This document shows, in pieces, positions 16,134-54,231 of a stretch of DNA of 64,000 nucleotides. The notes below the pieces were generated by a model, which searched no databases, had not been told where the DNA came from, and saw only the letters and a program-made list of their open reading frames with translations. The stretch covers positions 640,696 to 704,695 of the forward strand of contig CAWBPL010000002.1 in the NCBI GenBank assembly GCA_963790805.1, read 5' to 3'. Origin of the DNA: Candidatus Gottesmanbacteria bacterium (GTDB lineage: Bacteria; Patescibacteriota; Microgenomatia; UBA10105; UBA927). Numbering within the stretch: the stretch's first letter is position 1; each line of letters starts with the position of its first letter. The translations under genes and the position numbers were made by a program.

Positions 16134-17027
16134 ATGAGACACATCTTGGTAACAGGGGGCAGCGGATTTATCGGACACAATATCGCCGAATCATTGAGTG
16201 GCGAATTTTCTCTTCTGGTTCCTACTCACAAAGAACTTGATTTGGTCGATAGTCAACTTCTTGGCAGATACATGAAAGTTCACAACATCGATACAATTAT
16301 TCATGCTGCAACAGGCGACCGGTTCGGCGGTTTCGGTGACAGTATCAGGATGTTTGCATCTATTCTTGAACAGGGAAAAGCCGTAAAGCAGATTATCCAT
16401 TTCGGATCCGGCGCGGAATACGATAAACGCAGAAATCTTATCCGCGTAAAAGAAACGGAATTTGGCGAACATTTACCGGTGGATGAATACGGATTGGCAA
16501 AATATTTTATGAGTTTGCTTGCGAAGTCCCGTGCGAACATTGTGACGCTTCGGCTGTTTGGAGTTTACGGACCTCATGAGGATTATCGCAGCAAATTTAT
16601 ATCCAATACAATTGCGAAAGAGCTTTTTGGGCTACCTATCGTTATTAAACAGAATGTCGTTTTTGATTATCTGTATATTGATGATTTAACCAAGATTCTT
16701 ACATTTATTCTGAAACGTCCGATGCGGCACGCGGTCTATAACGTAACGCCGGATGAATCGATATCATTGTCCCAAATCGCCGGGATCATTAAGAAAATTT
16801 CAGGTAACAAAACGCCATTCACTATTCTTAATTCTGGTTATAATTTTCAATATACCGGCGATAATCTGCGGTTGCGAAAAGAAATTCCCACATTCAAGTT
16901 CCATACCTATGAGGAGGGAATAGAGAAGTTATATGCCTATTATAAATCCCATAAAAAAGAACTCAGTAAAACAGTATTAAAAATGGATGATTTTTTGGCG
17001 CGTTCTCTGACACGGAAGAACACATGA
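16134..17027 (+). CDS. NAD-dependent nucleotide-sugar epimerase/reductase (SDR)
   Basis: ILVTGGSGFIGHN and YGLAK (YxxxK). 297 aa. Confidence 0.7.
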   Translation: MRHILVTGGSGFIGHNIAESLSGEFSLLVPTHKELDLVDSQLLGRYMKVHNIDTIIHAATGDRFGGFGDSIRMFASILEQGKAVKQIIHFGSGAEYDKRRNLIRVKETEFGEHLPVDEYGLAKYFMSLLAKSRANIVTLRLFGVYGPHEDYRSKFISNTIAKELFGLPIVIKQNVVFDYLYIDDLTKILTFILKRPMRHAVYNVTPDESISLSQIAGIIKKISGNKTPFTILNSGYNFQYTGDNLRLRKEIPTFKFHTYEEGIEKLYAYYKSHKKELSKTVLKMDDFLARSLTRKNT

Positions 17028-23525: not shown

Positions 23526-23594
23526 CAGGATTTCGGCTAAACAGCTGTTGTTTTTATCAATACCTCTGGTATGATGGCACTAAGGTTTGTGACT

Positions 23595-27280: not shown

Positions 27281-28639
27281 CGTGTAGAAATGCCGAAACC
27301 ACGTCCGCAGGTGTTTTCCTATGATCACCCACCAATAGAGTGAGAAGAGCGTTAAAAACGGTTGAACAGTGCTATAAAACCGTGCATAGTCATAATATCC
27401 GGTTCCGGTAAGAACATAGAGAACGACAGTACCGTATGAAAAAGTGCCAAGAAGGGTAATTCCCGCTTCTTTCCGTGATATTTTTTTGAATAAAAGCCGT
27501 ATCCACGCCACAAGAATAAATGGAATAGAAGTTATATAGATATATTGTGTTAATCGAAATACGATTGAGAGAGCATAGAATATTGATCGCACGATGTTTG
27601 TTGGGGCAAATGCGTAATGCTCATCAGTGACAAGAAATGACGCTGGAATATCGGCGAGCCCATGAAGTGCGTAAGCGAATGGATATGCGTTGATTATTGC
27701 CATATCGAATTTTCGCAGTATGATAATATTTTGAGTTGAGCTGTACGTATCAACGTTATATGTATTAAGAAAAATCCAGACATCGGGTTTGTTCGTTGAG
27801 ACTGTGTATGCTTTCACCTGATCGTAGAGCGGCTGGAAGTTTTTTGCGGGTGTCAGAGGAAGTCGGAATTGCATAATGCGCGCGAGCATATTGATGTCGC
27901 CGCCATTTTGTATGCCGAAGTACCCCCAGTTCATTTCGTTGATTTTTGCATAGCCAAGAATAAAAAGAATAAAGAGACCGCCGGCGACGATGCATCGAAG
28001 AAGTGCTGGAAGTTTTTTGTGATAATAGGCGATAAACGGAAATATGATGAATGGATAAATTATCGTTGCCGGTCGGAAGAGAACGCCGATGATTGAAAAA
28101 AAAGTAATGAAAAGTACGGTAAGCCACGTTGGGGAGGTGAGTGCATATATCATAAGAAACCCCATGATAAAGGTAATTGGTATTGAAAAACTTTCCGATA
28201 ACACTGATCGTTCCCATATAATGGCATTTATACTTATGGCCTGAAAAATACTCATGCCGAGTATGACCAAGCGCGATGTAAAGAGTTTACGAAGCATGAA
28301 ATAGAAAATAATGATTCCGATAATATTTACTACCGTCTGTATAAATCCGATATACTGTTCACCGATAAAATATTCCGGCGATACCATGCGTACGCCGAAA
28401 TGTCCGGTTGCCGCGACAATAGCGTTAAGAAAAATCGGATACAACGGCGGGCGGAAAGGATTAATCCATGATCGCAGCGAAGGTGATCGGAGCATATTTT
28501 GTCCAATTTCGTAATACCCGTATGTATCAGGGAAAATATTGAGATACGGATGGATGACCAGATATCCAATCCGAATAAGTATTGCAACGCCAAGAAGAAT
28601 AGCCAGATCTATGAAAGTTTTTTTATTTTTCAGCAGCAT
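27269..28639 (-). CDS. GT-C glycosyltransferase, GT39/ArnT-like (family B, member 2)
   Basis: 456 aa. See the family B motif above. The N-terminus DLAILLGVAILIRIGYLVIHPY parallels the other members. Confidence 0.6.
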   Translation of the reverse strand: MLLKNKKTFIDLAILLGVAILIRIGYLVIHPYLNIFPDTYGYYEIGQNMLRSPSLRSWINPFRPPLYPIFLNAIVAATGHFGVRMVSPEYFIGEQYIGFIQTVVNIIGIIIFYFMLRKLFTSRLVILGMSIFQAISINAIIWERSVLSESFSIPITFIMGFLMIYALTSPTWLTVLFITFFSIIGVLFRPATIIYPFIIFPFIAYYHKKLPALLRCIVAGGLFILFILGYAKINEMNWGYFGIQNGGDINMLARIMQFRLPLTPAKNFQPLYDQVKAYTVSTNKPDVWIFLNTYNVDTYSSTQNIIILRKFDMAIINAYPFAYALHGLADIPASFLVTDEHYAFAPTNIVRSIFYALSIVFRLTQYIYITSIPFILVAWIRLLFKKISRKEAGITLLGTFSYGTVVLYVLTGTGYYDYARFYSTVQPFLTLFSLYWWVIIGKHLRTWFRHFYTLSQ

Positions 28640-28767
28640 ACCGTCGGTAAGAGGGAATATGACAATAGTATAAATTATAGAGGTTTGACTTTCTACCTTA
28701 AGATATTCATGGTGTTCAAGTACAGCAGTCTTGAGTTTTATACATGTTCGCCTATAATGCGAGGGCT

Positions 28768-29553
28768 ATGAAAACAGTGATTCTTTGCGGAGGAATAGGA
28801 TACCGGTTAAAAGAAGAAACGGAATTTAAGCCGAAACCCATGGTCCTCGTCGGCAATAAACCGATACTCTGGCATATCATGAAAATTTATGCTCACTTCG
28901 GATTTAAAGAATTTATTATCGCTCTCGGGTATAAAGGCGAGTACATAAAAGATTATTTTTTGAATCAGAAATATTTTCTCCACGATTTTACACTCCACAC
29001 CAAAAGCGGACATACAACGATTCATCGGGTATCTGATGATCATCTGACGATGGATGATTTTACCATTACGTTTGTGGATACTGGGCAGGAGACATTACCG
29101 GGTGAAAGGATTCTTCGCGTCCGTGATTTTATACCCAAAAATGATGATGAATTTATGGTTACCTATGGTGATGGGTTGGGAGATGTTGATATAAAAAAGC
29201 TCATTGCTTTTCATCATAAACATAAAACAATAGGCACGCTCACAGGTGTCCATCCGCGCAGTAAATTCGGATTAGTGCGCCTGAATACTGAGAATAAAGT
29301 AACGGGATTTTTAGAAAAACCGTCGCTTAAGGAATGGGTGAATGGGGGATTTATGATATTTAACAAGAAATTTTTTAAATACCTAAAACCCAATGAATAT
29401 GAACATGTTGCTATCAATCGGCTGGTTCAAGAAGATGAGCTTTCCATCTATACACATGAGGGATTTTGGCATTCGATGGATACTTATTCAGATGTCGAGA
29501 GTCTCAATAAACTTTGGGTCACGAACCCGCTTTGGAAGATCTGGCACGATTAA
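28768..29553 (+). CDS. rfbF: Glucose-1-phosphate cytidylyltransferase
   Basis: MKTVILCGGIGYRLKEETEFKPKPMVLVGNKPILWHIMKIYAHFGFKEFIIALGYKGEYIKDYF is the characteristic RfbF N-terminus. A TATAAT box lies at 28753-28758. An alternative ATG exists at 28744. Confidence 0.85.
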   Translation: MKTVILCGGIGYRLKEETEFKPKPMVLVGNKPILWHIMKIYAHFGFKEFIIALGYKGEYIKDYFLNQKYFLHDFTLHTKSGHTTIHRVSDDHLTMDDFTITFVDTGQETLPGERILRVRDFIPKNDDEFMVTYGDGLGDVDIKKLIAFHHKHKTIGTLTGVHPRSKFGLVRLNTENKVTGFLEKPSLKEWVNGGFMIFNKKFFKYLKPNEYEHVAINRLVQEDELSIYTHEGFWHSMDTYSDVESLNKLWVTNPLWKIWHD

Positions 29554-30901
29554 CGTGTGGATGGATAATCTGTGCGATCCAGAAGAACGAAAAAAGATAA
29601 AAAACCGTTTGTCCTGCGCCTACCAACCGTCCCCATTCACCGTATCCATACACAAGCGTGACTCCAATTTGATATATCGAAAGCAAGCCGAGAAACATAA
29701 GCGCCGCAACGCGAAAGTTTTTCCGTGAAAAAAATGAAGCGAACGTAATGGGAAGGAATACAAAAATAGCAAACGTGACGTATTGCATGTATTTGTAGAC
29801 TGTAAACAGTGAAGTAAATACCGCGCGAAGCGGAGGCGATTTGATTGATCCGATAGGGAGAAGATCGTCAGCAGGCGTATCCGTGAGTGCATGAGGCAGG
29901 TCGGTGAGTACAGAGCCGAAGTATTGAGGGAATGTCCCGATCATAACCTGTCGGGTGAATTTTTGAAGGTCATTCATGCGCCCGGAGTTATAAAACATCG
30001 AAGGGTCGTAAAAACTCAAGTACCAATAGGGCATTTGGGTGTTGCCGCCGCGGGCTCGGTAGTCATTGACAGTTGTATAAAAAAACGGAACATCGCGACC
30101 GGATTCCACTGGGATATTAAAGCGCAAGATTCTTCCCATAACATTAATATCAGCAATTTGTGTGACACCGGCATAATTGTGAATTGTCACATTTTTGTAG
30201 ATATACAAACCCGGTATGAGAAAGTAGACGATGAGTATAATTACCGTAAACCATGTAACCCAGCGTTTTTTGTGGTAGAGGGCAATAATGGGAAGCAAAA
30301 GAATTGGTAGCAGTACATATGATGGCCGTACAAAAAATCCGATGATAAAGAGGACGAGTACGGCGAGAAATTTTTTCCATGACGGATTTTTCAGCGTAAT
30401 AATGTAAACGAACACAAGAAGCATAAGCCAAAAGGTGGTTATTGATTCAGTAAGGATCGTCCGTTCTTGCCAAAACAGCATAATATCCATGCCGATAAAC
30501 AGGCAACAACAATATGCCCATACGTTTCGTATCTTGAGTTGTCGCAACGTTATATAGAGAAGTGGTATTTCAAGAACTCCAAGAATTGTTTGGGTATAGA
30601 CGACAATATTTAATCCCTGATAAAACGATCTGCTGTAAAGTGCTGCGTTGAAATGCCCCGATAAAAACATAATAAGAGCGAGGAAAATTGGGTATCCGGG
30701 AGTCCGGTAATTATTAAAAAAATATGCAAGAAAGTTGTCGGTAAACAGATGGTTTGCGTAGTAATAATAATTCCCGCTGTCATCAGTGAATATCGGATAC
30801 TGCGTTGTACTCATATAGAGAATCCGGATTCCCAAAACGATAAGAACAATGACTGGAATTACGATCCATGGAGTTGAAAATCGGGAGATAATTTTTTTCA
30901 T
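29519..30901 (-). CDS. GT-C glycosyltransferase, GT39/ArnT-like (family B, member 3)
   Basis: 460 aa with the family B motif. Its 3' end overlaps rfbF by 35 nt (convergent). Confidence 0.6.
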   Translation of the reverse strand: MKKIISRFSTPWIVIPVIVLIVLGIRILYMSTTQYPIFTDDSGNYYYYANHLFTDNFLAYFFNNYRTPGYPIFLALIMFLSGHFNAALYSRSFYQGLNIVVYTQTILGVLEIPLLYITLRQLKIRNVWAYCCCLFIGMDIMLFWQERTILTESITTFWLMLLVFVYIITLKNPSWKKFLAVLVLFIIGFFVRPSYVLLPILLLPIIALYHKKRWVTWFTVIILIVYFLIPGLYIYKNVTIHNYAGVTQIADINVMGRILRFNIPVESGRDVPFFYTTVNDYRARGGNTQMPYWYLSFYDPSMFYNSGRMNDLQKFTRQVMIGTFPQYFGSVLTDLPHALTDTPADDLLPIGSIKSPPLRAVFTSLFTVYKYMQYVTFAIFVFLPITFASFFSRKNFRVAALMFLGLLSIYQIGVTLVYGYGEWGRLVGAGQTVFYLFSFFWIAQIIHPHVNRARSSKAGS

Positions 30902-30943
30902 GACGCGTGTGAAATGATTTAATTTCTATTATATACCGCAAAA

Positions 30944-31031
30944 ACTCAGGTTTGTAATTAAGTTTTTGAGTATAGACCCATCTAATCAGATTTTTCGTCC
31001 CAAGAGACTGTAAATCTGAGTAAGATGGGTC
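30944..31031 (+). ncRNA. Structured leader-like RNA motif, copy 2 (unclassified)
   Basis: The hairpin spans 30975-31031. The outer stem is GACCCATCT/AGATGGGTC and the inner stem is TCAGATTT/AAATCTGA. The apical stem GTC/GAC sits in an 18-nt cap, as in copy 1. The 5' ACTCAGG lies at 30944-30950. Confidence 0.5.
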
Positions 31032-31103
31032 TACATATCCGGTCGATTGTTTTTTGTAACTGCTGACGTATAATGTGAACACCTTCTGAAACTGCCCCGC
31101 CGA

Positions 31104-32075
31104 ATGAATGATATGGCACGAAAAACTCGATTAGCTGATAAAACAATTCTGGTTACCGGCGGTACCGGATTTGTGGGAAGTCATTTGGTTGAGAAATTAT
31201 GCGCTTCCGGCGCTCGCGTTGTTGTTCCCTATAGAAGCGTTGATCCAAAGAGTTACTTCGCCATACAAAAACTTCAAACAAAGGCCGTCATGACCATTGC
31301 AGATCTTAAGAATTACACAAGAGTTCTTGATATCGTGACAAAGTATGAAATTACGCACATTTTTCATCTTGCAGCGCAGCCCATTGTAACAACTGCATAT
31401 ATAAATCCGCTGGAAACCATGGCGTCAAATGTTATGGGGACTGCTCATATACTTGAAGCCGCGCGGGTGTCCGGCGTCAAAGGCGTTATCATAACGTCTT
31501 CAGATAAGGCCTACGGCAAAAGCAAAAAACAGTATGAGGAAACTGATCCTTTAAGAGGTGATCATCCATACGAGGCTTCCAAAAGTGCGGCTGATCTTCT
31601 CGCCCATTCGTATTGGAAAACGTATCGTTTGCCGGTCGTCGTTACACGGTTTGGGAATATTTATGGACCCGGAGACCTTAATTTTTCCCGTATTGTACCC
31701 GGCATCATGAAAGCCATTTTTGATAAAGAGGTATTGCATCTTCGAAGTGACGGGACGTTTGTCCGTGATTATGTCTACGTCGGGGACATTGTGTCGGCGT
31801 ATATGTGGATACTCGATCATTTCGATTTGGTCCGTGGTGAAGCCCTCAACGTAGCATCCGATACATCCGTATCTGTGTTGGATCTCATTAAAAAGTCCAA
31901 ATCCATTCTTCATAAACCGATCCGCTATTCGATTGATAAAACTGAGGTCAACGAGATTACGTATCAACATTTGTCGTACGAAAAAATAAAAAAGCTCGGC
32001 TGGCGGCCGCATATTTCTCTTAAACAGGGTTTGACGCAAACGTATAAGTGGTATAAAAAATATTCGCGAACCTAA
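31104..32075 (+). CDS. rfbG: NDP-hexose 4,6-dehydratase, probably CDP-glucose 4,6-dehydratase
   Basis: ILVTGGTGFVGSH, NVMGT, SSDKAYG and YEASK (YxxxK) are present. Its position between rfbF and rfbH supports a CDP-glucose substrate. A TATAAT box lies at 31069-31074. Confidence 0.6.
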   Translation: MNDMARKTRLADKTILVTGGTGFVGSHLVEKLCASGARVVVPYRSVDPKSYFAIQKLQTKAVMTIADLKNYTRVLDIVTKYEITHIFHLAAQPIVTTAYINPLETMASNVMGTAHILEAARVSGVKGVIITSSDKAYGKSKKQYEETDPLRGDHPYEASKSAADLLAHSYWKTYRLPVVVTRFGNIYGPGDLNFSRIVPGIMKAIFDKEVLHLRSDGTFVRDYVYVGDIVSAYMWILDHFDLVRGEALNVASDTSVSVLDLIKKSKSILHKPIRYSIDKTEVNEITYQHLSYEKIKKLGWRPHISLKQGLTQTYKWYKKYSRT

Positions 32076-32141
32076 ATTATTTTATATTGACAAGATTGTA
32101 ATTTCTGTTACAGTTTTTGTTGTGTCAGTAAATATACATAT

Positions 32142-33929
32142 ATGAAACTATCAGATTATCTAGCGGAGTTTTTGGTCAAAGAGGGGATTCATCACGTTTT
32201 CCAAATCATTGGCGGGGCATCGGTTCACATGGTGAACTCGCTTGCCGATGCAAAAGGCATGCAGTATATCTGTGTCCAGCACGAGCAGGCGGGCGCAATG
32301 GCTGCCGAAGCGTATTCACGGATAACGAAAAATATGGGCGCTGCGATGGCAACCAGCGGCCCCGGCATGACGAATCTTATAACCGGTATTGCGTGTGCGT
32401 ATTTTGATTCAATTCCGACTCTCTATATCACCGGTCAGGTCAATACGTTTGAATCGAAAGAGGGCAGAAAAGTCCGTCAGGTCGGGTTCCAAGAAACCGA
32501 TATTGTTGCCGTCGTACAATCTTTGACCAAATATGCGGTACGGGTAGACAATGCTTCGGATATCCGCTACGAACTTGAAAAAGCTGTGTATATCGCAAAA
32601 TCAGGGCGCCCCGGCCCCGTTATAGTGGATGTTCCGATGAATATTCAGCGGGCCGACATAAAGCCCCAAACACTCAAACGGTTTGATCCGAAAGAGTATG
32701 TGCCAGATGTTGATGCGGCTTCTTATGTAAAACAAAAAATCCATGATGCATGGAAAAAACTTGCTCAGGCCAAGCGCCCAGTCCTTATTGCCGGTGGAGC
32801 TATCCGCTATGCAGATCAAATACAGGTGTTTGAAGATCTCGTGAACCGTTTGGGAATTCCGGTTGTATCTACATGGAGCGGCATTGACGTACTTCCCCAT
32901 GACCATCCCCTCTATCGGGGACAGATGGGTGTCTACGGTAACAGGGCAGCCAATTTTACGATCCAAAATAGCGATTGTATTCTGAGTATCGGCAGCCGTC
33001 TGGATACGCGCATTACCGGCGGAAAACCGGAAACATTTGCCCGCGAGGCGTTTAAGATCGTTGTTGATATTGACCGGGCCGAGATCTACAAAAATCGGGG
33101 ATTCAATCCCGACATCGGCATCTGTGCGGATGTACGCGATGTGATTCCATTGTTCCTTAAAGAAGTAAAAACATCTCATGAAAAACAAGCAGACTGTTCT
33201 TCTTGGGTGAAAAGTACGAAGACGTGGACAGGTGAGTTTCCCTCAGTATTGCCCGAGTGGCGCAAGCGTACCTCACTGGTTGATCCGTATGTTTTTATTG
33301 AACGGCTTTCCGAGCTTTTGCCGTCGAACGCTACAGTTGTTACCGATTGTGGGGCAAATCTAACATGGACCGTACAGGCCTTTCATGTACGCCGCGGCCA
33401 GCGGCTATTTTCCGCGATGGGAAATTCTCCCATGGGGTATGCATTTCCGGCGGCAATCGGAGCCTCAATTGCATTAGGCAACAAACCGGTTATCGGGATT
33501 ATCGGTGACGGGGGAGTACAGATTAACATTCAGGAGCTCCAGACGCTTGTCCATTACAAAGTGCCGGTCAAATTATTTATTCTTAATAATCACTCGTATG
33601 GTATCATCATGCAATTTCAGGAGATGTATTTTAACGGTAAATACGAGGCGACGATTCCGCAAAAAGGGTACAGTATGCCGGATTTTCTGGCGCTTGCAAA
33701 AGCCTACGGGTTGCCGTCAGTAAGCATATCAACCCACAAAGAGCTGGACCGGAAAATAAAAGCAGTCCTTGCGATGAAGGGACCGGTTGTTTGTGACGTT
33801 CATCTGCCTACGCATGCAAAGCTTATTCCTAAATTGTCTTTTGGTAACCCCATCGAAGATCTTTCGCCGGCGCTTTCCGATGAAGTATTTAACAGGCACA
33901 TGCTTATTGCAGCATTACCACGAAAATGA
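32142..33929 (+). CDS. Thiamine-diphosphate-dependent enzyme, acetolactate-synthase-large-subunit family (YerE-like branched-sugar synthase candidate)
   Basis: 595 aa with the three-domain AHAS-like layout. The ThDP motif IIGDGGVQINIQELQTLVHYKVPVKLFILNNHSYG (GDG-x24-NN) is present. The N-terminal GPGMTNLITGIA is typical of the family. Confidence 0.75.
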   Translation: MKLSDYLAEFLVKEGIHHVFQIIGGASVHMVNSLADAKGMQYICVQHEQAGAMAAEAYSRITKNMGAAMATSGPGMTNLITGIACAYFDSIPTLYITGQVNTFESKEGRKVRQVGFQETDIVAVVQSLTKYAVRVDNASDIRYELEKAVYIAKSGRPGPVIVDVPMNIQRADIKPQTLKRFDPKEYVPDVDAASYVKQKIHDAWKKLAQAKRPVLIAGGAIRYADQIQVFEDLVNRLGIPVVSTWSGIDVLPHDHPLYRGQMGVYGNRAANFTIQNSDCILSIGSRLDTRITGGKPETFAREAFKIVVDIDRAEIYKNRGFNPDIGICADVRDVIPLFLKEVKTSHEKQADCSSWVKSTKTWTGEFPSVLPEWRKRTSLVDPYVFIERLSELLPSNATVVTDCGANLTWTVQAFHVRRGQRLFSAMGNSPMGYAFPAAIGASIALGNKPVIGIIGDGGVQINIQELQTLVHYKVPVKLFILNNHSYGIIMQFQEMYFNGKYEATIPQKGYSMPDFLALAKAYGLPSVSISTHKELDRKIKAVLAMKGPVVCDVHLPTHAKLIPKLSFGNPIEDLSPALSDEVFNRHMLIAALPRK

Positions 33930-35125
33930 AAAAACAATTATCCCGATTTACTCTTGCTGCGCGCACCAATGTTCTTGCTCCCGAAGGGGCGTATTTTATG
34001 TTAACGCAGGCGACCGCCTTGGAAAGAAAAGGGATATCAATCGTACATTTTGAAATAGGTCAACCCGATTACCCGACGCCGGCACATATAGTTGAAGCGG
34101 GGGTGAGAGCTCTCCACGAGGGTAAAACCAAATATACGCCACCATTAGGAATTTATGAACTTCGTGAAGCTATAGCCACCCGTATAACTAAATCCCGTGG
34201 AATTAAAACCGTTGCCGAAGAAGTCGCTGTGACCCCAAGCGGCAAGACTGCTCTATTTGCTGCAATGGCAGCAGTGTTAAATCCGCGGGATGAAGTATTA
34301 TATCCTGATCCGGGGTTTCCGACGTACCGGACGCTTATAGATTTTTTGGGAGCAGTAGGCAAGCCGGTGCCTCTTCGCGAGTCGCGCCATTTTAGTTTTG
34401 ATCTGGATGTGTTTGCGAGGCAGATCACCAAAAAAACAAAACTGGTTATATTGAATTCTCCCAGTAACCCTACCGGCGGGTATATACCGCGCGCGGATAT
34501 TCGGCGCATTGCATCACTTGTAAAAAAGACAAATGCATGGGTTATGACTGATGAAATGTACAGCGACTTACCATATACCGACGAGCCGTACGCAAGTATT
34601 TATAGTGAACCCGGCATGAAGGAGCGCACCATCCTCGTTCACGGATTTTCAAAAACGTATGCCATGACAGGGTGGCGACTTGGCTATCTGGTTGTTCCGG
34701 AAAGAATAATACATATTATTGATTATTTACTGACACATACAGTCGGATGTACTGCGAGTTTCACACAAGAGGCGGGTATTGCAGCTCTTCAGGGGACGCA
34801 AAAAGATGTGAAAACTATGGTTTCGAGTTATCACAAACGCAGAGATTATATTGTACGCGTACTGAATGAAATACCGGGAATTCACTGTGAAGTACCGCAA
34901 GGCGCATTTTATGTATTTCCGAATATTTCATCCTTTGGCCTGTCCTCTCAAAAACTTGCACTCTATTTACTTCATGAAGCGCACGTGGCATTATTACCCG
35001 GAACAGCATTCGGGTCGTACGGAGAAGGATACGTCCGCATTTCCTACGCGACGAGTATGTCCCAACTCAAAGAAGGTGTCCGTCGAATTGCGTTGGCACT
35101 TGCCAAGCTGTCACCCAAGCGCTGA
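33926..35125 (+). CDS. PLP-dependent aminotransferase, class I (AspAT-like)
   Basis: SKTYAMTGWRLGY (PLP lysine motif) and NSPSNPTG. 399 aa. There is a 4-nt overlap with the upstream gene. Confidence 0.8.
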   Translation: MKKQLSRFTLAARTNVLAPEGAYFMLTQATALERKGISIVHFEIGQPDYPTPAHIVEAGVRALHEGKTKYTPPLGIYELREAIATRITKSRGIKTVAEEVAVTPSGKTALFAAMAAVLNPRDEVLYPDPGFPTYRTLIDFLGAVGKPVPLRESRHFSFDLDVFARQITKKTKLVILNSPSNPTGGYIPRADIRRIASLVKKTNAWVMTDEMYSDLPYTDEPYASIYSEPGMKERTILVHGFSKTYAMTGWRLGYLVVPERIIHIIDYLLTHTVGCTASFTQEAGIAALQGTQKDVKTMVSSYHKRRDYIVRVLNEIPGIHCEVPQGAFYVFPNISSFGLSSQKLALYLLHEAHVALLPGTAFGSYGEGYVRISYATSMSQLKEGVRRIALALAKLSPKR

Positions 35126-35158
35126 TATCTAAAGAGCTTTAGAATAACAGATACCGCT

Positions 35159-36028
35159 ATGAAACAGTATTCCTTCAAGGAACTTACAACTATTGCCCGA
35201 GAGGTGAGACGCGAGATTCTATCCATGAGTTATCGTGCGCAAAGCGCTCACATGGGCGGATCACTTTCCTGCGTTGAAATTCTTGTTTCGTTATATTTTT
35301 CCGTCATGCACATTGATCCCAAAAAACCGGAAGATCCAAAGCGCGACCGGTTGATTTTCAGCAAAGCGCATGATGCAAAAGCGCTGTATGCGGTACTGGC
35401 ACGGCGGGGATTTTTTAGCCGGAAATTTCTTGAGAGATATGAACTCGATGGGGGAAAGCTTCCCGGACACTCGACGCGTCACTGCGTGCCGGGAGTGGAA
35501 GCTTCAGCGGGGTCGCTGGGACACGGACTTTCCATGGCTGCAGGAGTAGCTTTTGCGTTGAGATTGGCTCGGGATAACAAAATTTTTCTTAAGCGATCAG
35601 CGAAAAATGTATTATCCTTCGGCTTTCCTCGGGTTTTTTGTATTCTCTCTGACGGCGAATGCGATGAGGGGTCGACGTGGGAAGCCGCGTTATTTGCCGG
35701 ACATCACAAACTTGAGAACCTTACCGTCATCGTCGATTACAACAAACTGCAGGGATTCGGATGTACGAAAGATATTCTTGATTTGGAACCGTTTGCGGAT
35801 AAATGGAGGGCTTTCGGATTTTCCGTACGGGAGGTCGAGGGGAATTCGTTTGGGCAGTTAACGCAAATCCTTTCATCCGTGCCGTTTGCAAAAGGAAAAC
35901 CGTCAGTCGTTCTCGCCCATACGATAAAAGGCTTGGGCGGGCCGAAGCGGCATATCAATCAGATATCGTCACAATACAATCCGCCGACAAGAGAAGAATA
36001 TGAAGCGCTCTTAAAACAATTATCATGA
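35159..36028 (+). CDS. Transketolase, N-terminal (ThDP-binding) subunit
   Basis: GHSTRHCVPGVEASAGSLGHGLSMAAG and LSDGECDEGSTWEAALFAGHHKLENLTVIVDYNKLQ (GDG..EG...N motif). Confidence 0.8.
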   Translation: MKQYSFKELTTIAREVRREILSMSYRAQSAHMGGSLSCVEILVSLYFSVMHIDPKKPEDPKRDRLIFSKAHDAKALYAVLARRGFFSRKFLERYELDGGKLPGHSTRHCVPGVEASAGSLGHGLSMAAGVAFALRLARDNKIFLKRSAKNVLSFGFPRVFCILSDGECDEGSTWEAALFAGHHKLENLTVIVDYNKLQGFGCTKDILDLEPFADKWRAFGFSVREVEGNSFGQLTQILSSVPFAKGKPSVVLAHTIKGLGGPKRHINQISSQYNPPTREEYEALLKQLS

Positions 36029-36939
36029 GAACGACATTTGCACAAACATTATTGCATCTTGCACATAAAGATCCGCGAATTATGCTTCTGACCGGAGATT
36101 TAGGATATGCCGTTTTTGAATCTTGGCAACGGGAAATTCCGAAGCAGTTATTGAATATGGGCGTTGCTGAACAGAATATGACAGGAGTTGCCGCAGGACT
36201 CGCGATGGAGGGATTGAGGCCGGTTATCTATTCTATAGTACCGTTTGCGACCATGCGGAATTTTGAGCAAATACGAAATGACATTTGTTACCAGAATTTG
36301 AACGTAAAGATTGTCGGCGTGGGCGCTGGTTTTTCGTATGGTCCGTACGGTCATACACATCACGGTCTGGAAGATATTGGAATTCTTCGGACGTTACCCA
36401 ACATTGTCATCCTTGCACCGGGTGATCCGGTTGAAGCTGAATTAGCCACAAAGGCCATGATGGCGCATCGTGGTCCCGTGTATCTGCGACTGGGGAAGGC
36501 GAGTGAACCCGTGTTATACGAAAAGAATCCCGATTTTCGCATCGGAAAGGGGATTCTTATGAAGGAAGGCCACGATGTGACGCTTATTGCTGCATCAACG
36601 ATGCTTGAACACGCTGTTGCAGCCGCTGATTTTTTACGTACAAACAATGTGAGCGTCCGTCTGGTGAGCATGCCCTCAATAAAACCGTTGGATGAAGTAA
36701 TAATTTTGGATTCAATGAAAAAAACCCGCGTGATGGTTACGGTTGAAGAACATAGTATTATTGGGGGATTGGGGAGCGCCGTCTCTGAAGTCGTTGCCCA
36801 GTCCGGCAGGGGAGTGACGTTTAAGCGAATTGCCGTACCTGATCGCATTACCAAAGGCATGGGACGGCAGGAATATATGCGCGAGCAAAGCGGGCTTATG
36901 GTAAAACAGATTGTACAGACAATTCAGACATTGGTATAG
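36025..36939 (+). CDS. Transketolase, C-terminal (pyrimidine-binding) subunit
   Basis: NMGVAEQNMTGVAAGLA, FATMRNFEQIRN and GPYGHTHHGLEDIG. There is a 4-nt ATGA overlap with the N-terminal subunit. Confidence 0.8.
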   Translation: MRTTFAQTLLHLAHKDPRIMLLTGDLGYAVFESWQREIPKQLLNMGVAEQNMTGVAAGLAMEGLRPVIYSIVPFATMRNFEQIRNDICYQNLNVKIVGVGAGFSYGPYGHTHHGLEDIGILRTLPNIVILAPGDPVEAELATKAMMAHRGPVYLRLGKASEPVLYEKNPDFRIGKGILMKEGHDVTLIAASTMLEHAVAAADFLRTNNVSVRLVSMPSIKPLDEVIILDSMKKTRVMVTVEEHSIIGGLGSAVSEVVAQSGRGVTFKRIAVPDRITKGMGRQEYMREQSGLMVKQIVQTIQTLV

Positions 36940-36949
36940 AATACAGTTT

Positions 36950-37618
36950 ATGAAGAAAATAACAAAAAATTTCCCGAAGCACGTCCGCGCCGTTTTATTT
37001 GATTATGACGGCGTCATTGTCGACTCCATGGAAGATAATTTTCACGCATGGGAGCGCGCGTTTGCTGATTATCACGTCGCCATTGCCAGAAAAAGCTTTT
37101 TTCCGCTTGAAGGCATGAGTCCGTTTGGCATAACTTCAGCGTTGGGTCAACAGTATCATGTACCAAAACGCCATTATAAAACCATTTCAACGGCTAAAGA
37201 TGCGTATTATTACAAATATCATGTATTCCGGTTATTTCCCAACGTTACGGAAACGTTAGAGACATTAAAACGCTGGGGAATAAGAATAGGATTAGTGACC
37301 GGTGGCATACAAGAACGCCTTTTGAAGGCCACTCCAGAGGCTGTATTGGCACTTTTTGATGTTATTGTGACGAGTGAAATGGTTACCAACACAAAACCGG
37401 ACCCTGAACCGTATGCAAAAGCGCTTGAACTTTTATTCATTCCGCCAACCGAGGCGCTGGTTGTTGAAAATGCCGTACTAGGTGTTATGTCAGCTCAAAC
37501 TGCGGGTATCTATTGTTTAGCCGTGCCGACCACGTCTCCCTGCAGCAAACTTGATGCGGATTATTGCATGAAATCCATTTCAGAAATACCTGCTCTTATA
37601 ACTGCGCACAAAGGATAA
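36950..37618 (+). CDS. HAD-superfamily phosphatase/phosphomutase (beta-PGM-like)
   Basis: Motif I is AVLFDYDGVIVDS (DxDG), followed by VTGG and ENAVLGVMSAQTAG. ATG 36950 follows the upstream stop at 36939. Confidence 0.7.
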   Translation: MKKITKNFPKHVRAVLFDYDGVIVDSMEDNFHAWERAFADYHVAIARKSFFPLEGMSPFGITSALGQQYHVPKRHYKTISTAKDAYYYKYHVFRLFPNVTETLETLKRWGIRIGLVTGGIQERLLKATPEAVLALFDVIVTSEMVTNTKPDPEPYAKALELLFIPPTEALVVENAVLGVMSAQTAGIYCLAVPTTSPCSKLDADYCMKSISEIPALITAHKG

Positions 37619-37621
37619 CGT

Positions 37622-38923
37622 ATGATTCCAAAATCATTGGAAAAACAAATAAAGGCATATTACAAAAAGACCTTTGGGAAACGATTGTTTATCGCCGGCA
37701 AATCCCACGTACCTGTTTCAGGTAAAGTATTTGACGAGGATGAGCTTATTGCCGGTACAGAATCGATTCTTGACGGCTGGTGGACCGAGGGACGGTTTGC
37801 CGAGAGTTTTGAGCGTGAATTCGGTAAATTTTTGGGCGCTCGCTACGTCAGCCTCGTGAATTCCGGATCGTCGGCCAACCTCATAGCTCTCACGGCTCTC
37901 ACATCGTCTGTATTTGGCAACAAGGCGCTTCAGCCGGGAGACGAAGTGATAACAGTCGCGACAGGTTTCCCGACAACCATTAATCCGATTCTGCAAAACC
38001 GCGCTATTGCCGTACTTCTCGATAATGATCTTGTTACCAAAAATGTTCGCCCACGCGATGTAGCCCGTGCGATCACCAAAAAAACCAAAGCAATTATCAT
38101 GGCCCACACGCTTGGCAATCTTATGCCTATTGATGAAATCTTGGAGCTTGTTAAACAACACAACCTCTGGTTTATCGAAGATTGTTGTGATGCGTTGGGA
38201 AGCGAATATAAAGGCAAATTAGCCGGTACATTCGGCCATGTCTCGACGTTTTCGTTTTATCCGGCGCACCAGATTACCATGGGGGAGGGGGGAGCCATTG
38301 TTACCAATAACCCCTTGATTCATAGGGCAATCCGGCAGTTCCGCGATTGGGGACGCGATTGCTGGTGTGACACAGGGAAGGATGATACGTGCAATAAACG
38401 GTTCGGCTGGAAGATGGGTGAGCTGCCGTTCGGGTATGATCACAAATATATTTACTCGCAGATCGGCTATAATTTGAAACTCACCGATATGCAGGCGGCA
38501 TTGGGTTTAGCCCAGCTTGGCAAGCTTCCCGAATTTATCAAAAAGCGGCGGGAGAATTTTACCGCTCTGTCAGAATTTTTCCAGCAATACAAAAAATATT
38601 TTATCCTCCCCGAAGCGTTGGGGGGCGCTCGTCCCAGCTGGTTTGGATTTCCCTTAGTTGTCGCCGATGGAGCACCATTTACCAAACTCGAGTTTGTGCA
38701 ATATCTCGAAGGCAAAAAGATCGCAACCCGAAGCATCTTCGGCGGCAATTTGGCGCGTCATCCGGCATATCTTGGTAGAAAAGACATCCGCATTATCGGC
38801 AAACTAACCAATTCGGACAAGCTTATGCGTGACGGCTTCTGGATTGGCGTGTATCCCGGAATTACCAAACAAATGCTTGCGTTTGTTCAAGGTTCCATAA
38901 CAGCGTTTATGAAGAAATGGTAG
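37622..38923 (+). CDS. rfbH: CDP-6-deoxy-L-threo-D-glycero-4-hexulose 3-dehydrase (E1; RfbH/DdhC), PMP- and [2Fe-2S]-dependent
   Basis: It is collinear with RfbH as I remember it: GSSANLIALTALTS, GDEVITVATGFPTTINP and LWFIEDCCDALG. SFYPAHQITMGEGG has His in the aminotransferase Lys position. RDCWCDTGKDDTC keeps the C-x1-C-x7-C cluster ligands. Confidence 0.85.
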   Translation: MIPKSLEKQIKAYYKKTFGKRLFIAGKSHVPVSGKVFDEDELIAGTESILDGWWTEGRFAESFEREFGKFLGARYVSLVNSGSSANLIALTALTSSVFGNKALQPGDEVITVATGFPTTINPILQNRAIAVLLDNDLVTKNVRPRDVARAITKKTKAIIMAHTLGNLMPIDEILELVKQHNLWFIEDCCDALGSEYKGKLAGTFGHVSTFSFYPAHQITMGEGGAIVTNNPLIHRAIRQFRDWGRDCWCDTGKDDTCNKRFGWKMGELPFGYDHKYIYSQIGYNLKLTDMQAALGLAQLGKLPEFIKKRRENFTALSEFFQQYKKYFILPEALGGARPSWFGFPLVVADGAPFTKLEFVQYLEGKKIATRSIFGGNLARHPAYLGRKDIRIIGKLTNSDKLMRDGFWIGVYPGITKQMLAFVQGSITAFMKKW

Positions 38924-38939
38924 GATTATTGCAGAATCT

Positions 38940-39803
38940 ATGGGAATTATAAAGAATCCATCATGCGTATTGTGCGGGGGGGGTGAATTTACCATACTTT
39001 TTTCCCATCACAATAACTGGAAGATGGGGAAATGCGCGACGTGCGGACTTGTGCAGATAACCCCCATGCCCGGTAAAAAAGAGATTGCCGAATTGTACCA
39101 TGAGGATTTTGATCATTTTGACCCCTATATTGAACAAAGTGAGGTGCACCATACATATTTTCGGCAGAAACTTGGTGAGCTCAAGCGCAATCTTCACGAT
39201 CTGAAGCTTCTGGATATCGGCTGTCTCACCGGTATACTTCTTATCGAAGCGAAACGAAAGGGTATGAGAGTGGTTGGTGTTGATATTTCAGCGGATGCGG
39301 TGAAGTATTGCTGCAGTCAAAGGTTGAAGGTATTCAATGGCACCGTGCAGTCGATTGAGCGGACGTTAAAACCGAAATCGTTTGACGTCGTTACTGCATT
39401 TCAAGTAATAGAACATGAGCGTGATCCTCTAAAGATGATGAAAAGGATATATTTGTTACTCAAAAGGAATGGTACCGTGATGATGGCGACACCCAGCTAT
39501 GGAGGGTTCTGGAGAAAGCTCATGGGCAAGCGCTGGTTCGGATTTGCCCACCCTGAGCATGTTGTTCTTTTTGATTTTGCTACCATGCGGATGCTTCTTG
39601 AGAAATCCGGCTTTCGGGACATAGAAATTCGCGCCGACAGCCCGCGTCCGTTTCCGTTGTCGTTTGCATTTACGCGCGGTGCCGATTATTTTCCATGGCT
39701 TGGGTGGGCGCTTAAGCCGATCGGCAAGCTTCTTGACCCGTTCGATATCAAAAATCCCGTAAACCCGTGGGATGATATGCTCGTTATCGCAAGGAAAAGA
39801 TAA
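38940..39803 (+). CDS. SAM-dependent methyltransferase with N-terminal Zn-ribbon (paralog of 11239-12117)
   Basis: It has CVLCGG...CATCG and the SAM motif LLDIGCLTGILL, followed by AFQVIEHERDP. Confidence 0.7.
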   Translation: MGIIKNPSCVLCGGGEFTILFSHHNNWKMGKCATCGLVQITPMPGKKEIAELYHEDFDHFDPYIEQSEVHHTYFRQKLGELKRNLHDLKLLDIGCLTGILLIEAKRKGMRVVGVDISADAVKYCCSQRLKVFNGTVQSIERTLKPKSFDVVTAFQVIEHERDPLKMMKRIYLLLKRNGTVMMATPSYGGFWRKLMGKRWFGFAHPEHVVLFDFATMRMLLEKSGFRDIEIRADSPRPFPLSFAFTRGADYFPWLGWALKPIGKLLDPFDIKNPVNPWDDMLVIARKR

Positions 39804-39804
39804 A

Positions 39805-39948
39805 ATGCACGTTGCACTTCGGTCGGTATGCTTTTTGTCGCACCCGTCAAGAAGGCTTGAGTCTTTTGTGAGCCTACGAGCCAAAGCAAGTTTGTTGAGA
39901 TCCTGCGCGTGACTGTGCTGGCAAAAAGCATACCAACCCGTGCAACAC
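39805..39948 (+). repeat. Palindromic (hairpin-forming) intergenic repeat element, copy B
   Basis: The 5' arm GTTGCAC-ttc-GGTCGGTATGCTTTTTG (39811-39837) is complementary to CAAAAAGCATACCAACC-c-GTGCAAC (39922-39946), with one mismatch. The stem continues inward as GCAC/GTGC and GTCA/TGAC. The core is shared with copies A and C. Confidence 0.65.
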
Positions 39949-39990
39949 TACATCTTGTCTTCTTGACTCACCTTTCAAAACAGTATACAA

Positions 39991-41001
39991 ATGCTTGGGA
40001 TGAAGCCCTATCTTTCCATCATCATCCCTGCCTACAACGCGAGCGTTTCCCTGAGTCGTTTGCTTGAGTCATTGAAAAAATCATCGTTTCGAAGTTTTGA
40101 AGTGATCGTCGGCGATGATGCATCAAACGAACAATACCTCGTGGGGAAGGGGATCAGGATTGTCAGATTGACGCGCAATAAAGGTCCGGCTGCGGCCCGT
40201 AACGCCGCAGCGAAACGCGCAAACGGTCAGGTATTGGTGTTTCTTGATAGCGACGTGACGGTCTATCCAGATACGCTTGCCAAAATTGCCGCGAAATTTA
40301 AAGAAGATCACGATTTGACCGCAATAACAGGCGTCTGGGATAAACATCAAAAAACCAAAGCTTTTTTCCCTCAATTTAAAGCAATCCGCGACTGGAGCTA
40401 CTGGACAAACGAACGGGAGCGGGATGGTTATTATTATCTTTTCAGCACCAGAATTGCCGCTATACGCCGCGAAGTATTTAAGCGGCTTGGAGGATTCAAT
40501 GAAGCATTCCGTCAGATGGAGGATGTAGAGCTAACCTACCGCATTGCGAAGCGGTACGCCATCATTTTTGCGCCTGATGTACGGGTACATCATGAATTTG
40601 AAGGATTCTGGGCTGTCGCTCGAAAATATTTCTGGCGAAGTTACTATTGGACAAAGCTGTATAAAGAGCGTAAAAAATTTGATCCGGTTGCAACCACCGT
40701 CTGGGAAAGCGTCGCTGCGGTATCGGGAGTTGGAGCCGTCGCGTGTGTCGTTGTCGGCATCATCGTCTTTTTCTTTCTTCCTTTAGCGTGGGTAAAACTC
40801 GTTACTCTGGTGAGCGCTGTCATATTGCTTCTTGTCCACATATTTCTGCTTCAAAAATTCCTGCGGTTTGTGTATAAAGAAAAGGGATTGGTATTTACGC
40901 TGAAGGCGCTGGGAACAGGACTTGTTTTGTACTGTATTATTTTGGGAGGATCTCTCTATTATTCCGTTCGATCACCAACACCCCGTGGTATGATACAGTA
41001 A
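39991..41001 (+). CDS. GT2 glycosyltransferase with C-terminal TM helices
   Basis: LSIIIPAYNASVSL, VGDDASNE, FLDSDV and QMEDVEL are present. There are 3 C-terminal TM helices. Confidence 0.75.
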   Translation: MLGMKPYLSIIIPAYNASVSLSRLLESLKKSSFRSFEVIVGDDASNEQYLVGKGIRIVRLTRNKGPAAARNAAAKRANGQVLVFLDSDVTVYPDTLAKIAAKFKEDHDLTAITGVWDKHQKTKAFFPQFKAIRDWSYWTNERERDGYYYLFSTRIAAIRREVFKRLGGFNEAFRQMEDVELTYRIAKRYAIIFAPDVRVHHEFEGFWAVARKYFWRSYYWTKLYKERKKFDPVATTVWESVAAVSGVGAVACVVVGIIVFFFLPLAWVKLVTLVSAVILLLVHIFLLQKFLRFVYKEKGLVFTLKALGTGLVLYCIILGGSLYYSVRSPTPRGMIQ

Positions 41002-41007
41002 TTAATT

Positions 41008-42591
41008 ATGAGCGGCGTGAAACGGATTTTTCCTATACCCGTATTGCTATTTTTTCTGGTCGTTGCCATCGGCGTACTGCTCATTCCCTCCATCGGCCCT
41101 GCGTGGGATGAGCCGGACAACATGTTTGCCGGCGGGGTCTACTGGAATTTTTTTGCAAAAGGTTTTGATCAAAAAGTATTTACGAATACTTCTGACAATG
41201 CCTCGTCGTACTTTGGGGAGCAGGTGTTTCCGTTGGATCGGTTCATATCCCATTTGCCTCCTGTTTATAACTATATCGGCACAGTATTTGCTGTGGCGGC
41301 GGAGCATTTTGGCGCTCCGCTGGCGGGCCGAACAGTTATTATCGCATATCATTTGATGACCGTATTGTTTTTAGCGCTTTTAGTGGTTATGACGTATGAG
41401 TTCGGAATACTACTCGGGTTGGAACCGCTCTGGAGCGTCATTGCGGCCATCAGTACCTGTTTGTATCCGACGGTATTTGGACATGGCCTCTCTAACAGCA
41501 AAGATACCGCCCAGTCAGCTCTTTTTATCACAAGCCTGTATTTCCTTGTCCGATCGGTAAAAAGATCTCGACCGGCGGATTTGATCATCGGCGCCGTTAT
41601 CTGGGGACTGGGACTGGCAACCAAATTTAACGCAGTGTACGTACCGATTATTTGGGGTATTTGGTCCATGATATATAGCTTTGGGAAAACGCCGCGACCC
41701 GTCATCGGCAAAAAGATTATTCAAATTATTCTTTCACTTTTTATTATTATCGGGTTGGGAATTCTCGTTGCTATTGCCGTGTGGCCCTATTTGTGGTTTG
41801 ACACTGTCAACCGAATTCTCGAAGTCGTGCGGTATTTTACGTCAGTAGGGCAGGGGTACAGGTTTTTTTGGAATGGACAGCGGTATCAAAGCGGACTTGG
41901 GATTTCATACTGGTGGTATCCCTTGGAAAGTTTTGTGTACCAGACGCCGTTGCCGCTTTTTTTCATAGTTCTTTTGGGGATTGGAGAAATATTGCGTTCG
42001 TTTAAGCGATACCCCGAACGGTTGCTTTTAGTTATCTGGATCGTTATCCCGTTTCTTCGCGCTTTCTGGCCGTGGGCAAGTTTATATGATCAGTTACGGC
42101 ATTTTATCGAAACGATTCCGGCTTTTCTGTTAACGGCAGCAATCTTTCTTCAATCCATAAGCCGCGGGAAAACACGTTTTTTTGCCTACCTGTTTGCGGA
42201 GATCATCGTTATACACCTTCTCTATATCAATGTTACGTATTTTCCCTACGCGGCCGGATATTACAATATACTGGCCCGAAATCCCAATACGGGATTTGAC
42301 CGTGATATCGAGTCGTTAACGATAAAGGAGGCGGTGGATTATATTCATACCAGTTACGGCCCGACGACCATTTGGGCTCCGCTTGGAGGTCATTTATCAT
42401 GGTATTATATGACGAAAGGCGATACCTATGTATATAACGCTCCGGATGCGAAGTTTATAATTCTCATTAATAAATCCTCCCATTTTACTGAACACGAGTT
42501 TTATGCCGGCATCGCCGATTCCTATATGTATGATCACATGATTACCCGAAACGGTAACATATTTGCATGGATTTATAAACGAATATATTAA
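41008..42591 (+). CDS. GT-C glycosyltransferase, GT39-like
   Basis: 527 aa and multi-TM. The first loop is GPAWDEPDNMFAGGVYW, and the C-terminal domain is soluble. Confidence 0.55.
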   Translation: MSGVKRIFPIPVLLFFLVVAIGVLLIPSIGPAWDEPDNMFAGGVYWNFFAKGFDQKVFTNTSDNASSYFGEQVFPLDRFISHLPPVYNYIGTVFAVAAEHFGAPLAGRTVIIAYHLMTVLFLALLVVMTYEFGILLGLEPLWSVIAAISTCLYPTVFGHGLSNSKDTAQSALFITSLYFLVRSVKRSRPADLIIGAVIWGLGLATKFNAVYVPIIWGIWSMIYSFGKTPRPVIGKKIIQIILSLFIIIGLGILVAIAVWPYLWFDTVNRILEVVRYFTSVGQGYRFFWNGQRYQSGLGISYWWYPLESFVYQTPLPLFFIVLLGIGEILRSFKRYPERLLLVIWIVIPFLRAFWPWASLYDQLRHFIETIPAFLLTAAIFLQSISRGKTRFFAYLFAEIIVIHLLYINVTYFPYAAGYYNILARNPNTGFDRDIESLTIKEAVDYIHTSYGPTTIWAPLGGHLSWYYMTKGDTYVYNAPDAKFIILINKSSHFTEHEFYAGIADSYMYDHMITRNGNIFAWIYKRIY

Positions 42592-44701: not shown

Positions 44702-44730
44702 TTGCATTTTACGTATTCCCTTGTCATACT
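44702..44730 (+). promoter_or_regulatory. Candidate promoter of the pilin genes
   Basis: TTGCAT (44702-44707), a 17-nt spacer, then CATACT (44725-44730). It lies 16 nt before ATG 44747. Confidence 0.35.
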
Positions 44731-44746
44731 GGACGAAAGATCGTCT

Positions 44747-45442: not shown

Positions 45443-45454
45443 GCACAGCGATGT

Positions 45455-46493: not shown

Positions 46494-46500
46494 ATTTCCT

Positions 46501-54231
<7,731 letters not shown>

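Follow-up and report, generated by a model that had tools for sequence, protein, structure and literature searches.

Yersinia pseudotuberculosis makes yersiniose A with DdhA/B/C/D, YerE, and YerF, a pathway that combines a cytidylyltransferase, a cytidine diphosphate (CDP)-glucose 4,6-dehydratase, the 3-dehydrase E1, a YerE-type carboligase that works on a 4-keto-3,6-dideoxy sugar, and a side-chain reductase. In the erwiniose, caryophyllose, and gastriose systems (ErwE, MMAR_2332, and MyGE; Steitz et al. 2022, PMC9306805), a YerE-like enzyme is accompanied by cluster-encoded enzymes that make a functionalized 2-keto-acid donor. The erwiniose enzyme ErwE uses a 4-hydroxy-2-keto acid made by an aldolase, with ErwI and ErwJ as the aldolase and dehydrogenase (PMC9306805). 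[quoted passage not shown] Here, we analyzed a 64,000-nucleotide stretch of a Candidatus Gottesmanbacteria genome (contig CAWBPL010000002.1, positions 640,696 to 704,695; "the window," whose own numbering is used below), in which an operon at positions 31104-42591 brings homologs of yersiniose-type enzymes together with a two-gene TK-like pair.

In a bacterium of the candidate phyla radiation (CPR)/Microgenomates type, this operon probably directs the synthesis of at least one C-branched 3,6-dideoxyhexose that goes into a surface glycoconjugate, a reading to which we assign a probability of about 0.6. A sequence-only reading of the same DNA had proposed a yersiniose-like branched or further-elaborated CDP-sugar; homology and gene context support that proposal, and all of the genes it named were found, at coordinates that were exact or a few codons off. 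As in yersiniose A, the window encodes a putative cytidylyltransferase, 4,6-dehydratase, E1, YerE-type carboligase, and a candidate side-chain reductase. It differs from the Yersinia system in having no E3 (DdhD) gene, in a thiamine diphosphate (ThDP)-dependent carboligase that is ∼37% identical to the solved YerE-like enzymes, in the addition of a coupled aminotransferase, the TK-like enzyme, a haloacid dehalogenase-type (HAD) phosphatase, and a methyltransferase, and in its host, a CPR bacterium rather than a proteobacterium.

The operon is co-directional throughout, with genes that overlap or are separated by very short gaps, and 4-nt overlaps occur in the ThDP enzyme/aminotransferase pair and in the pair that encodes the N- and C-terminal TK-like subunits (TKN and TKC). 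The cytidylyltransferase gene sits just upstream. Both lie in a glycan-biosynthesis island that spans ∼6 kb to 42.6 kb of the window and contains four GT2 glycosyltransferases, three PMT_2-like proteins, one YfhO-like membrane protein, four methyltransferases, four short-chain dehydrogenases/reductases (SDRs), and one gene resembling uridine diphosphate N-acetylglucosamine (UDP-GlcNAc) 3-dehydrogenase. A copy of the operon is carried by a 21.9-kb Logan contig. The same gene modules were found again in dozens of independent loci, which argues that the arrangement is not due to chance. These comparison loci are labeled L002-L097, of which L015-L094 are the 80 TK-like loci recovered in a metagenome scan with the N-subunit. 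In promoter and terminator scans of the 28-45-kb part of the window, sites were no more frequent than in shuffled sequence.

By alignment, the identity of the E1-type 3-dehydrase is unambiguous. It matches the Yersinia E1 (3bcx) over residues 10-427 with an E-value of 1e-149. In its segment SFYPAHQITMGEGG (aa 211-224), His216 aligns with His220 of E1 and replaces the Schiff-base Lys, as the sequence-only reading had called. That reading had also seen the C-x1-C-x7-C ligands of a [2Fe-2S] cluster in DCWCDTGKDDTC (aa 246-257), and all four cluster cysteines were kept on realignment with the complete pattern C189-x57-C247-x-C249-x7-C257.

Two further genes are predicted to provide the substrate of E1. 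The profile match of the glucose-1-phosphate cytidylyltransferase-like protein begins at nucleotide 28768, which is residue 9 of an open reading frame (ORF) spanning 28744-29553, and orthologs with 58-71% identity accompany TK-like and YerE-like genes in 24 loci. The SDR that opens the operon contains GxGxxG and YEASK, and its top solved match is an epimerase. Its S133-D134-K135, however, lines up with TSDKCY in 1rkx and 1wvg, the two CDP-glucose 4,6-dehydratases of known structure, and with STDEVY of thymidine diphosphate (dTDP)-glucose dehydratases, not with the epimerase motif.

The 595-aa ThDP enzyme, described earlier as an acetohydroxyacid synthase (AHAS)-like protein with GDG-x24-NN, contains three TPP domains, this motif at aa 455-483, and an HEQ glutamate at aa 46-48. 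In the PDB it matches 8rph best (376 bits), followed by 5ahk (360 bits), and both outrank plant AHAS (309 bits, the highest AHAS score) and Escherichia coli AHAS I (272 bits). We take 5ahk, deposited under the name "acetolactate synthase II, large subunit," to be PpYerE. A PpYerE structure is mentioned in PMC12247030, and 8rph carries a CDG motif as described there for JanthE, by which we assign it to the JanthE type. In a neighbor-joining tree, the window protein falls with CPR homologs, a JanthE-like sequence, and remote relatives in an erwiniose context that belong to other phyla, and all 100 bootstraps place it apart from E. coli IlvB/IlvI. The nearest named relatives come from bins assigned to Gottesmanbacteria, Levybacteria, and "Patescibacteria group." No ilvN, ilvC, or ilvD gene lies beside the window gene, which instead shares its locus with the cytidylyltransferase, the 4,6-dehydratase-like SDR, and E1, without E3. 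All eight of the contexts read for its CPR relatives are nucleotide-sugar loci, none with ilvN or ilvC. The ranking of PDB matches, the tree, the sugar-locus context, and the absence of an ilvN or ilvC neighbor together support the assignment of this protein as YerE-like rather than as an AHAS of the IlvB/IlvG type. The YerE-like part of the system is a further member of a known enzyme type, and nothing in the locus as a whole is categorically new.

In L009 (Verrucomicrobiota), L010 (Mucilaginibacter agri), L011 (Capsulimonadaceae), and L045 (a metagenome contig), distant relatives of the ThDP enzyme (36-39% identity) lie next to genes for a DmpG/HMGL-type aldolase and a DmpF-like acetaldehyde dehydrogenase, which is the layout of the erwiniose cluster. 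The erwiniose-like clusters L010 and L011 also hold a nucleotidyltransferase, an SDR, and E1. In two CPR loci (L002 and L097), the YerE-like gene adjoins a nonulosonic-acid cluster with NeuB, a UDP-GlcNAc 2-epimerase-like protein, a cytidine monophosphate (CMP)-transferase, and a HisF/HisH-like pair.

The sequence-only reading had listed a TK as a second ThDP enzyme. The split gene pair is indeed present, but its reading as a canonical TK does not hold, as substrate-binding residues are replaced and both subunits score far below the cutoff of the best NCBIfam model (NF004559, 205 and 209 bits, cutoff 488). We aligned the two subunits with the split TK of Carboxydothermus hydrogenoformans (6yaj/6yak) and with human TK, and residues are given here in yeast numbering. 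The window pair shares with the Carboxydothermus enzyme the fold, the division into two subunits, the ThDP/Mg2+ ligands, the activating Glu (Glu418), and most active-site histidines, with equivalents of His30, His69, His103, His481, Asp157, and Asn187 all kept. In canonical TKs, His469, Asp477, Ser386, Arg528, and His263 bind the sugar phosphate and the 2-OH of the acceptor. At these positions the window pair has Gly for His469, Tyr for Asp477, Ala for Ser386, and Lys for Arg528, whereas the Arg359 equivalent is kept; the His263 column is occupied by Gln, so that this residue is probably replaced too. In addition, SDG takes the place of the GDG motif, both in the window pair and in 73 of 74 relatives.

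These replacements are shared by a wider group. Among the TK-like relatives, 57 of 60 have Gly at His469 and 55 of 60 have Leu or Tyr at Asp477. When 1.84 billion cluster representatives were searched, the replacement pattern was found in ∼140 of the best 150, with Gly in 127 and Asp retained in 8, and the canonical residues returned only at the bottom of those 150. The split TK 6yaj, unlike these proteins, retains the equivalents of His469 and Asp477. Because the signature occurs in most of the best 150 representatives, we regard the TK-like pair as part of a large and distinct family.

The genes that surround the TK-like pair are also conserved. Across the 80 TK-like loci, the recurring core order is SDR-TKN-TKC followed by a DegT-family or E1 gene, often with a nucleotidyltransferase and a 4,6-dehydratase upstream. 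Twenty-seven loci are well-flanked, with 3 kb or more on either side of the pair; in 24 of these an SDR or DegT-family gene lies within three genes of it, in 20 there is a DegT or E1 gene, and in 14 a cytidylyltransferase. An SDR type marked by the sequence INTGSSSEYG stands immediately upstream of TKN in ∼20 loci; it also directly follows the ThDP gene in L097 and the class-I aminotransferase gene in L002. Forty-five DegT-family genes were found near the TK-like pair, and 16 of them encode His-type 3-dehydratases (8 of the E1 type and 8 without an Fe-S motif), suggesting that 3-deoxygenated 4-keto sugars are frequent co-substrates. Taken together, the remodeled pocket and the conserved SDR, DegT, and E1 neighbors support the view that the TK-like pair is a specialized sugar-locus paralog and not a pentose-phosphate enzyme, a role that the sequence-only reading had left to be checked.

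Over the whole of L015-L094, 14 DegT-family proteins have His at the position of E1 His216 and lack C-x-C-x7-C, 8 of them encoded within two genes of the TK-like pair. By sequence, these 14 proteins look like ColD-type 3-dehydratases.

In the literature on TKs in O-antigen or rfb loci, we found nothing relevant save the wps-2 extracellular polysaccharide cluster of Actinoplanes missouriensis, which has an identical methyltransferase-TKN-TKC-DegT module that is reported without a functional proposal (PMC13390465). The split TKs of miharamycin and amipurimycin biosynthesis (PMC12247030) resemble the window pair in gene context, since they too lie beside oxidoreductase and sugar-tailoring genes and have a keto-sugar as presumed acceptor. 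They belong to Streptomyces antibiotic clusters, whereas the genes described here occur in surface-glycan loci of CPR bacteria and other phyla.

Table 1. Genes of the putative branched-sugar operon and associated genes, in window positions
Feature	Position	Strand	Domain, model, or structure matches
Glucose-1-phosphate cytidylyltransferase-like nucleotidyltransferase	28768..29553 (ORF opens 28744)	+	PF00483; TIGR02623 272 bits, cutoff 300
CDP-glucose 4,6-dehydratase-like SDR, first operon gene	31104..32075	+	TIGR02622 best NCBIfam match, 187 bits, cutoff 278
YerE-like ThDP carboligase, DC superfamily (595 aa)	32142..33929	+	PF02776, PF00205, PF02775
Class-I aminotransferase, aspartate aminotransferase (AspAT)-like, subgroup Ib	33926..35125	+	PF00155; 1j32 AspAT 276 bits (best match)
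TK-like N-terminal (PP-domain) subunit	35159..36028	+	PF00456; split TK 6yak 198 bits
TK-like C-terminal (Pyr and C-domain) subunit	36025..36939	+	PF02779, PF02780; 6yaj 217 bits
HAD-IA phosphatase, beta-phosphoglucomutase-family hydrolase-like	36950..37618	+	PF13419; TIGR02009 102 bits, cutoff 153
E1/RfbH/DdhC, pyridoxamine phosphate- and [2Fe-2S]-dependent CDP-4-keto-6-deoxyglucose 3-dehydrase	37622..38923	+	NF011936 634 bits, cutoff 423
Class-I S-adenosylmethionine-dependent methyltransferase	38940..39803 (alternative start 39024)	+	PF13489
GT2 glycosyltransferase	39991..41001	+	PF00535
PMT_2-like (GT-C type) membrane glycosyltransferase, last operon gene	41008..42591	+	PF13231 weak, 23.9 bits, under cutoff
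Short SDR, candidate YerF-like side-chain ketone reductase (outside the span covered by the sequence-only reading)	16134..17027	+	

In the route that we propose, the cytidylyltransferase would form CDP-glucose, the SDR with the S-D-K motif would convert it to CDP-4-keto-6-deoxyglucose, and E1 would remove the 3-OH to give CDP-4-keto-3,6-dideoxyglucose, using electrons from a reductase encoded outside the window. The AspAT-like aminotransferase would deaminate an amino acid to a 2-keto acid, which the YerE-like enzyme would decarboxylate in order to add an acyl-anion equivalent at the C-4 ketone. This step would produce a tertiary alcohol that bears an acyl side chain. The TK-like heteromer, with a pocket that has lost the residues binding sugar phosphates and the acceptor 2-OH, would act as a second ThDP carboligase and transfer a two-carbon unit (hydroxyacetyl, possibly acetyl) to a keto-sugar. 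Its acceptor could be the 4-keto intermediate also used by the YerE-like enzyme, which would lead to a second sugar, or the newly formed side-chain ketone. The SDR at 16134-17027 and the methyltransferase would then tailor the branch, and the GT2 and GT-C glycosyltransferases would transfer the sugar. Homology is established for the cytidylyltransferase, dehydratase, and E1 steps; the chemistry of each step, which branching reaction comes first, and the donors are what we infer from the genes.

The candidate for the side-chain reductase comes from outside the operon. The SDR at 16134-17027 is 35-42% identical over ∼290 aa to members of one SDR family, whose genes neighbor YerE-like genes, TK-like genes, or both in L006, L008, L013, L026, L030, L033, and L045 and directly after the ThDP and class-I aminotransferase genes in L096. 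On this basis, it is the best candidate for a YerF-like reductase. The RmlD-like SDR at 23571-24530 was considered for the same role and fits less well, since it has no relatives beside ThDP or TK-like genes. Relatives of the operon methyltransferase adjoin TK-like genes in L067 and L070.

If the TK-like enzyme used the 4-keto intermediate as acceptor, the operon could encode two parallel pathways that leave a shared CDP-4-keto intermediate and yield two sugars, with no sequential double elaboration of one. This is the alternative that we take most seriously, and we regard it as possible, on the lower side of even odds. The two modules do occur apart, as a YerE-like gene is present in only 3 of the 27 well-flanked TK-like loci and L002, L096, and L097 have a YerE-like gene without TK-like genes, and the window encodes many glycosyltransferases. 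Against this stand the contiguity of both modules in one operon, both in the window and in L023, and the presence of only one nucleotidyltransferase, one 4,6-dehydratase, and one E1 set. The pairing of TK-like and YerE-like genes recurs in L023, L030, L033, and L045.

The role assigned to the aminotransferase bears on the nature of the branch. The protein keeps the Schiff-base Lys in SKTYAMTGWR and the α-carboxylate Arg in RISYA. In CPR loci, namely the window, L002, L023, and L096, its gene directly follows that of the ThDP enzyme, and the 4-nt overlap between the two, which points to translational coupling, occurs in the window, L002, and L096. In other loci, the slot beside the YerE-like gene holds an aldolase/acetaldehyde dehydrogenase pair or, in L097, a PanB-like ketopantoate hydroxymethyltransferase, where the described erwiniose-type systems have an ErwI/ErwJ-type aldolase and dehydrogenase. 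Because the slot is elsewhere filled by genes that make 2-keto acids, the aminotransferase probably supplies the 2-keto-acid donor from an amino acid, and its coupling to the carboligase suggests a donor other than pyruvate. The PanB-like gene of L097 (6975-7907, - strand) adjoins the YerE-like gene, and another lies inside the TK-like sugar locus L022 (7256-8173, + strand; PF02548, 350 bits). Such an enzyme could supply the branching step with a hydroxymethylated 2-keto acid as donor.

Alternatively, the aminotransferase may act after branching and convert the side-chain ketone to an amine, which would produce a 4-C-(1-aminoalkyl) sugar. The position of its gene immediately downstream of the ThDP gene, with translational coupling, is consistent with this, and PMC9306805 names transaminases as one of the kinds of enzyme that modify acetyl branches. 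Sugar ketones, however, are normally aminated by DegT-family enzymes, which are plentiful in these loci, whereas the window protein is a typical AspAT-like transaminase of amino acids and keto acids. The sharing of its slot with donor-making genes in other loci likewise speaks for a role ahead of the carboligase. A precedent for such an arrangement is the aruH/aruI pair of Pseudomonas, in which an aminotransferase feeds an AHAS-like decarboxylase. With these points weighed, amination of the branch seems to us doubtful.

Less probable still is that the TK-like enzyme and the HAD phosphatase act on small metabolites, building or trimming a donor such as a hydroxylated keto compound, and not on a nucleotide sugar. 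TKs natively use small sugar phosphates, the HAD gene adjoins the TK-like pair, and donor-supply genes are known in YerE-like clusters. Most TK-like loci, however, contain no YerE-like enzyme that would need a donor, the HAD gene is not conserved with the TK-like genes, and two of the three phosphate-binding positions of the TK-like pair are changed (Ser386 to Ala and Arg528 to Lys, with Arg359 kept); we consider this explanation unlikely.

We reject as very improbable the view that the operon is a housekeeping mosaic within a glycan island, composed of an acetolactate synthase, a general aminotransferase, and a pentose-phosphate TK: the top NCBIfam models are AHAS and TK (both matched below cutoff) and CPR genomes are small with functions mixed in operons, but the PDB ranking and the tree set the ThDP enzyme apart from AHAS, ilvN, ilvC, and ilvD are missing, the TK-like family lacks the His469 and Asp477 equivalents kept in 6yaj, and the sugar-gene synteny is maintained across dozens of loci.

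Several observations weigh against the assignment of a branched 3,6-dideoxyhexose to this operon. The rfbF and 4,6-dehydratase genes named in the sequence-only reading are present, but both proteins score below the NCBIfam equivalog cutoffs (Table 1), so the nucleotide and the substrate given for them are predictions. As that reading had remarked, no E3-type reductase was seen in the 64-kb window: Pfam scans of the ORFs of 150 aa or more, leaving aside the 2576-aa ORF and a few that overlap others, gave neither an FNR nor a Fer2 domain, and in motif scans no credible window ORF contained a plant-type 2Fe-2S or a 4Fe-4S ferredoxin motif. The sole ferredoxin-motif match, at 47515, was discarded as not credible because it is antisense within the giant ORF. 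The INTGSSSEYG-type SDR, the usual predecessor of TK-like genes, was not seen in the window. The HAD gene is present at 36950-37618, as had been stated, and its product carries a DxDxV nucleophile motif (DYDGV), but none of the other 93 sugar loci (L002-L094) yielded a homolog, and its occurrence is not conserved with either module. The aminotransferase could instead aminate the side-chain ketone, and its retained α-carboxylate Arg, considered as a test of its role, was judged not to discriminate, since glutamate is also a substrate. Finally, the assembly has frameshifts elsewhere in the window, in leuS.

The missing reductase has parallels. In a motif scan of L002-L094, an E3-like gene was found only in L010 (5913-6986). 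The E1-type enzyme SpnQ, too, has no E3 of its own encoded with it, and SpnQ-type 3-dehydrases use general cellular ferredoxin or flavodoxin reductases. SpnQ differs from the window enzyme in its substrate, a TDP-2,6-dideoxy sugar, and in its actinomycete host.

The leuS gene for leucyl-tRNA synthetase (55384-57889, + strand) falls into four or more pieces that switch between reading frames (55384-55608, 55469-56878, 56878-57171, and 57095-57889), which may reflect indel errors in the assembly, a pseudogene, or recoding. Since indel errors are possible, single-gene calls in the window need caution. Despite these doubts about the assembly, the two-gene split of the TK is conserved in all related loci. 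The ComEC competence domain (58755-59831, + strand) and its metallo-β-lactamase domain (59844-60740, + strand) are also encoded by two adjacent ORFs, and this may be a further frameshift or a genuine split.

Other features of the window lie between or beyond the sugar genes. Three ORFs of 456-460 aa that match no Pfam family (20503-21879, 27269-28639, and 29519-30901, all on the - strand) are interleaved with the sugar genes on the opposite strand; the first two are paralogs of each other, and one of the three separates the cytidylyltransferase from the 4,6-dehydratase gene. A 2576-aa ORF (46501-54231, - strand) is adjoined by three small genes (44702-46493, + strand) with the prepilin N-terminal methylation motif PF07963, and the region 44702-54231 may encode surface proteins or a type IV pilus-like structure. 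Next to leuS, separating it from the giant ORF, an AT-rich segment of ∼1.1 kb (54232-55380; GC content 0.34, compared with ∼0.45 elsewhere) contains no credible ORF.

What is new in this locus is the apparent use of an aminotransferase as donor supplier, the recurrent pairing of YerE-like and TK-like genes, and the breadth of the TK-like family beyond Streptomyces. We tentatively propose, as a speculation that goes further than our main conclusion, that the family marked by SDG, Gly, and Leu/Tyr/Ala (at least ∼140 clusters at 50% identity) could be a general two-carbon C-branching enzyme for nucleotide keto-sugars in the surface-glycan loci of CPR bacteria, Actinomycetota, and other phyla. In the window, its joining to an aminotransferase-fed YerE-like enzyme might yield an undescribed higher-carbon 3,6-dideoxy sugar that is amino-acid-derived and elaborated twice.

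Branched-chain sugars are rare, antigenic, and chemically hard to detect, and their prediction from sequence is a stated aim of recent work on YerE-like enzymes. The locus described here would carry the YerE-like logic into CPR bacteria, in which surface glycans are essentially unknown, and it suggests a new route to the acyl donor, transamination of an amino acid. The widespread TK-like family is the most valuable lead from this analysis, as it provides many soluble two-subunit candidates for keto-sugar branching, and these enzymes may prove to be new biocatalysts that generate tertiary alcohols.

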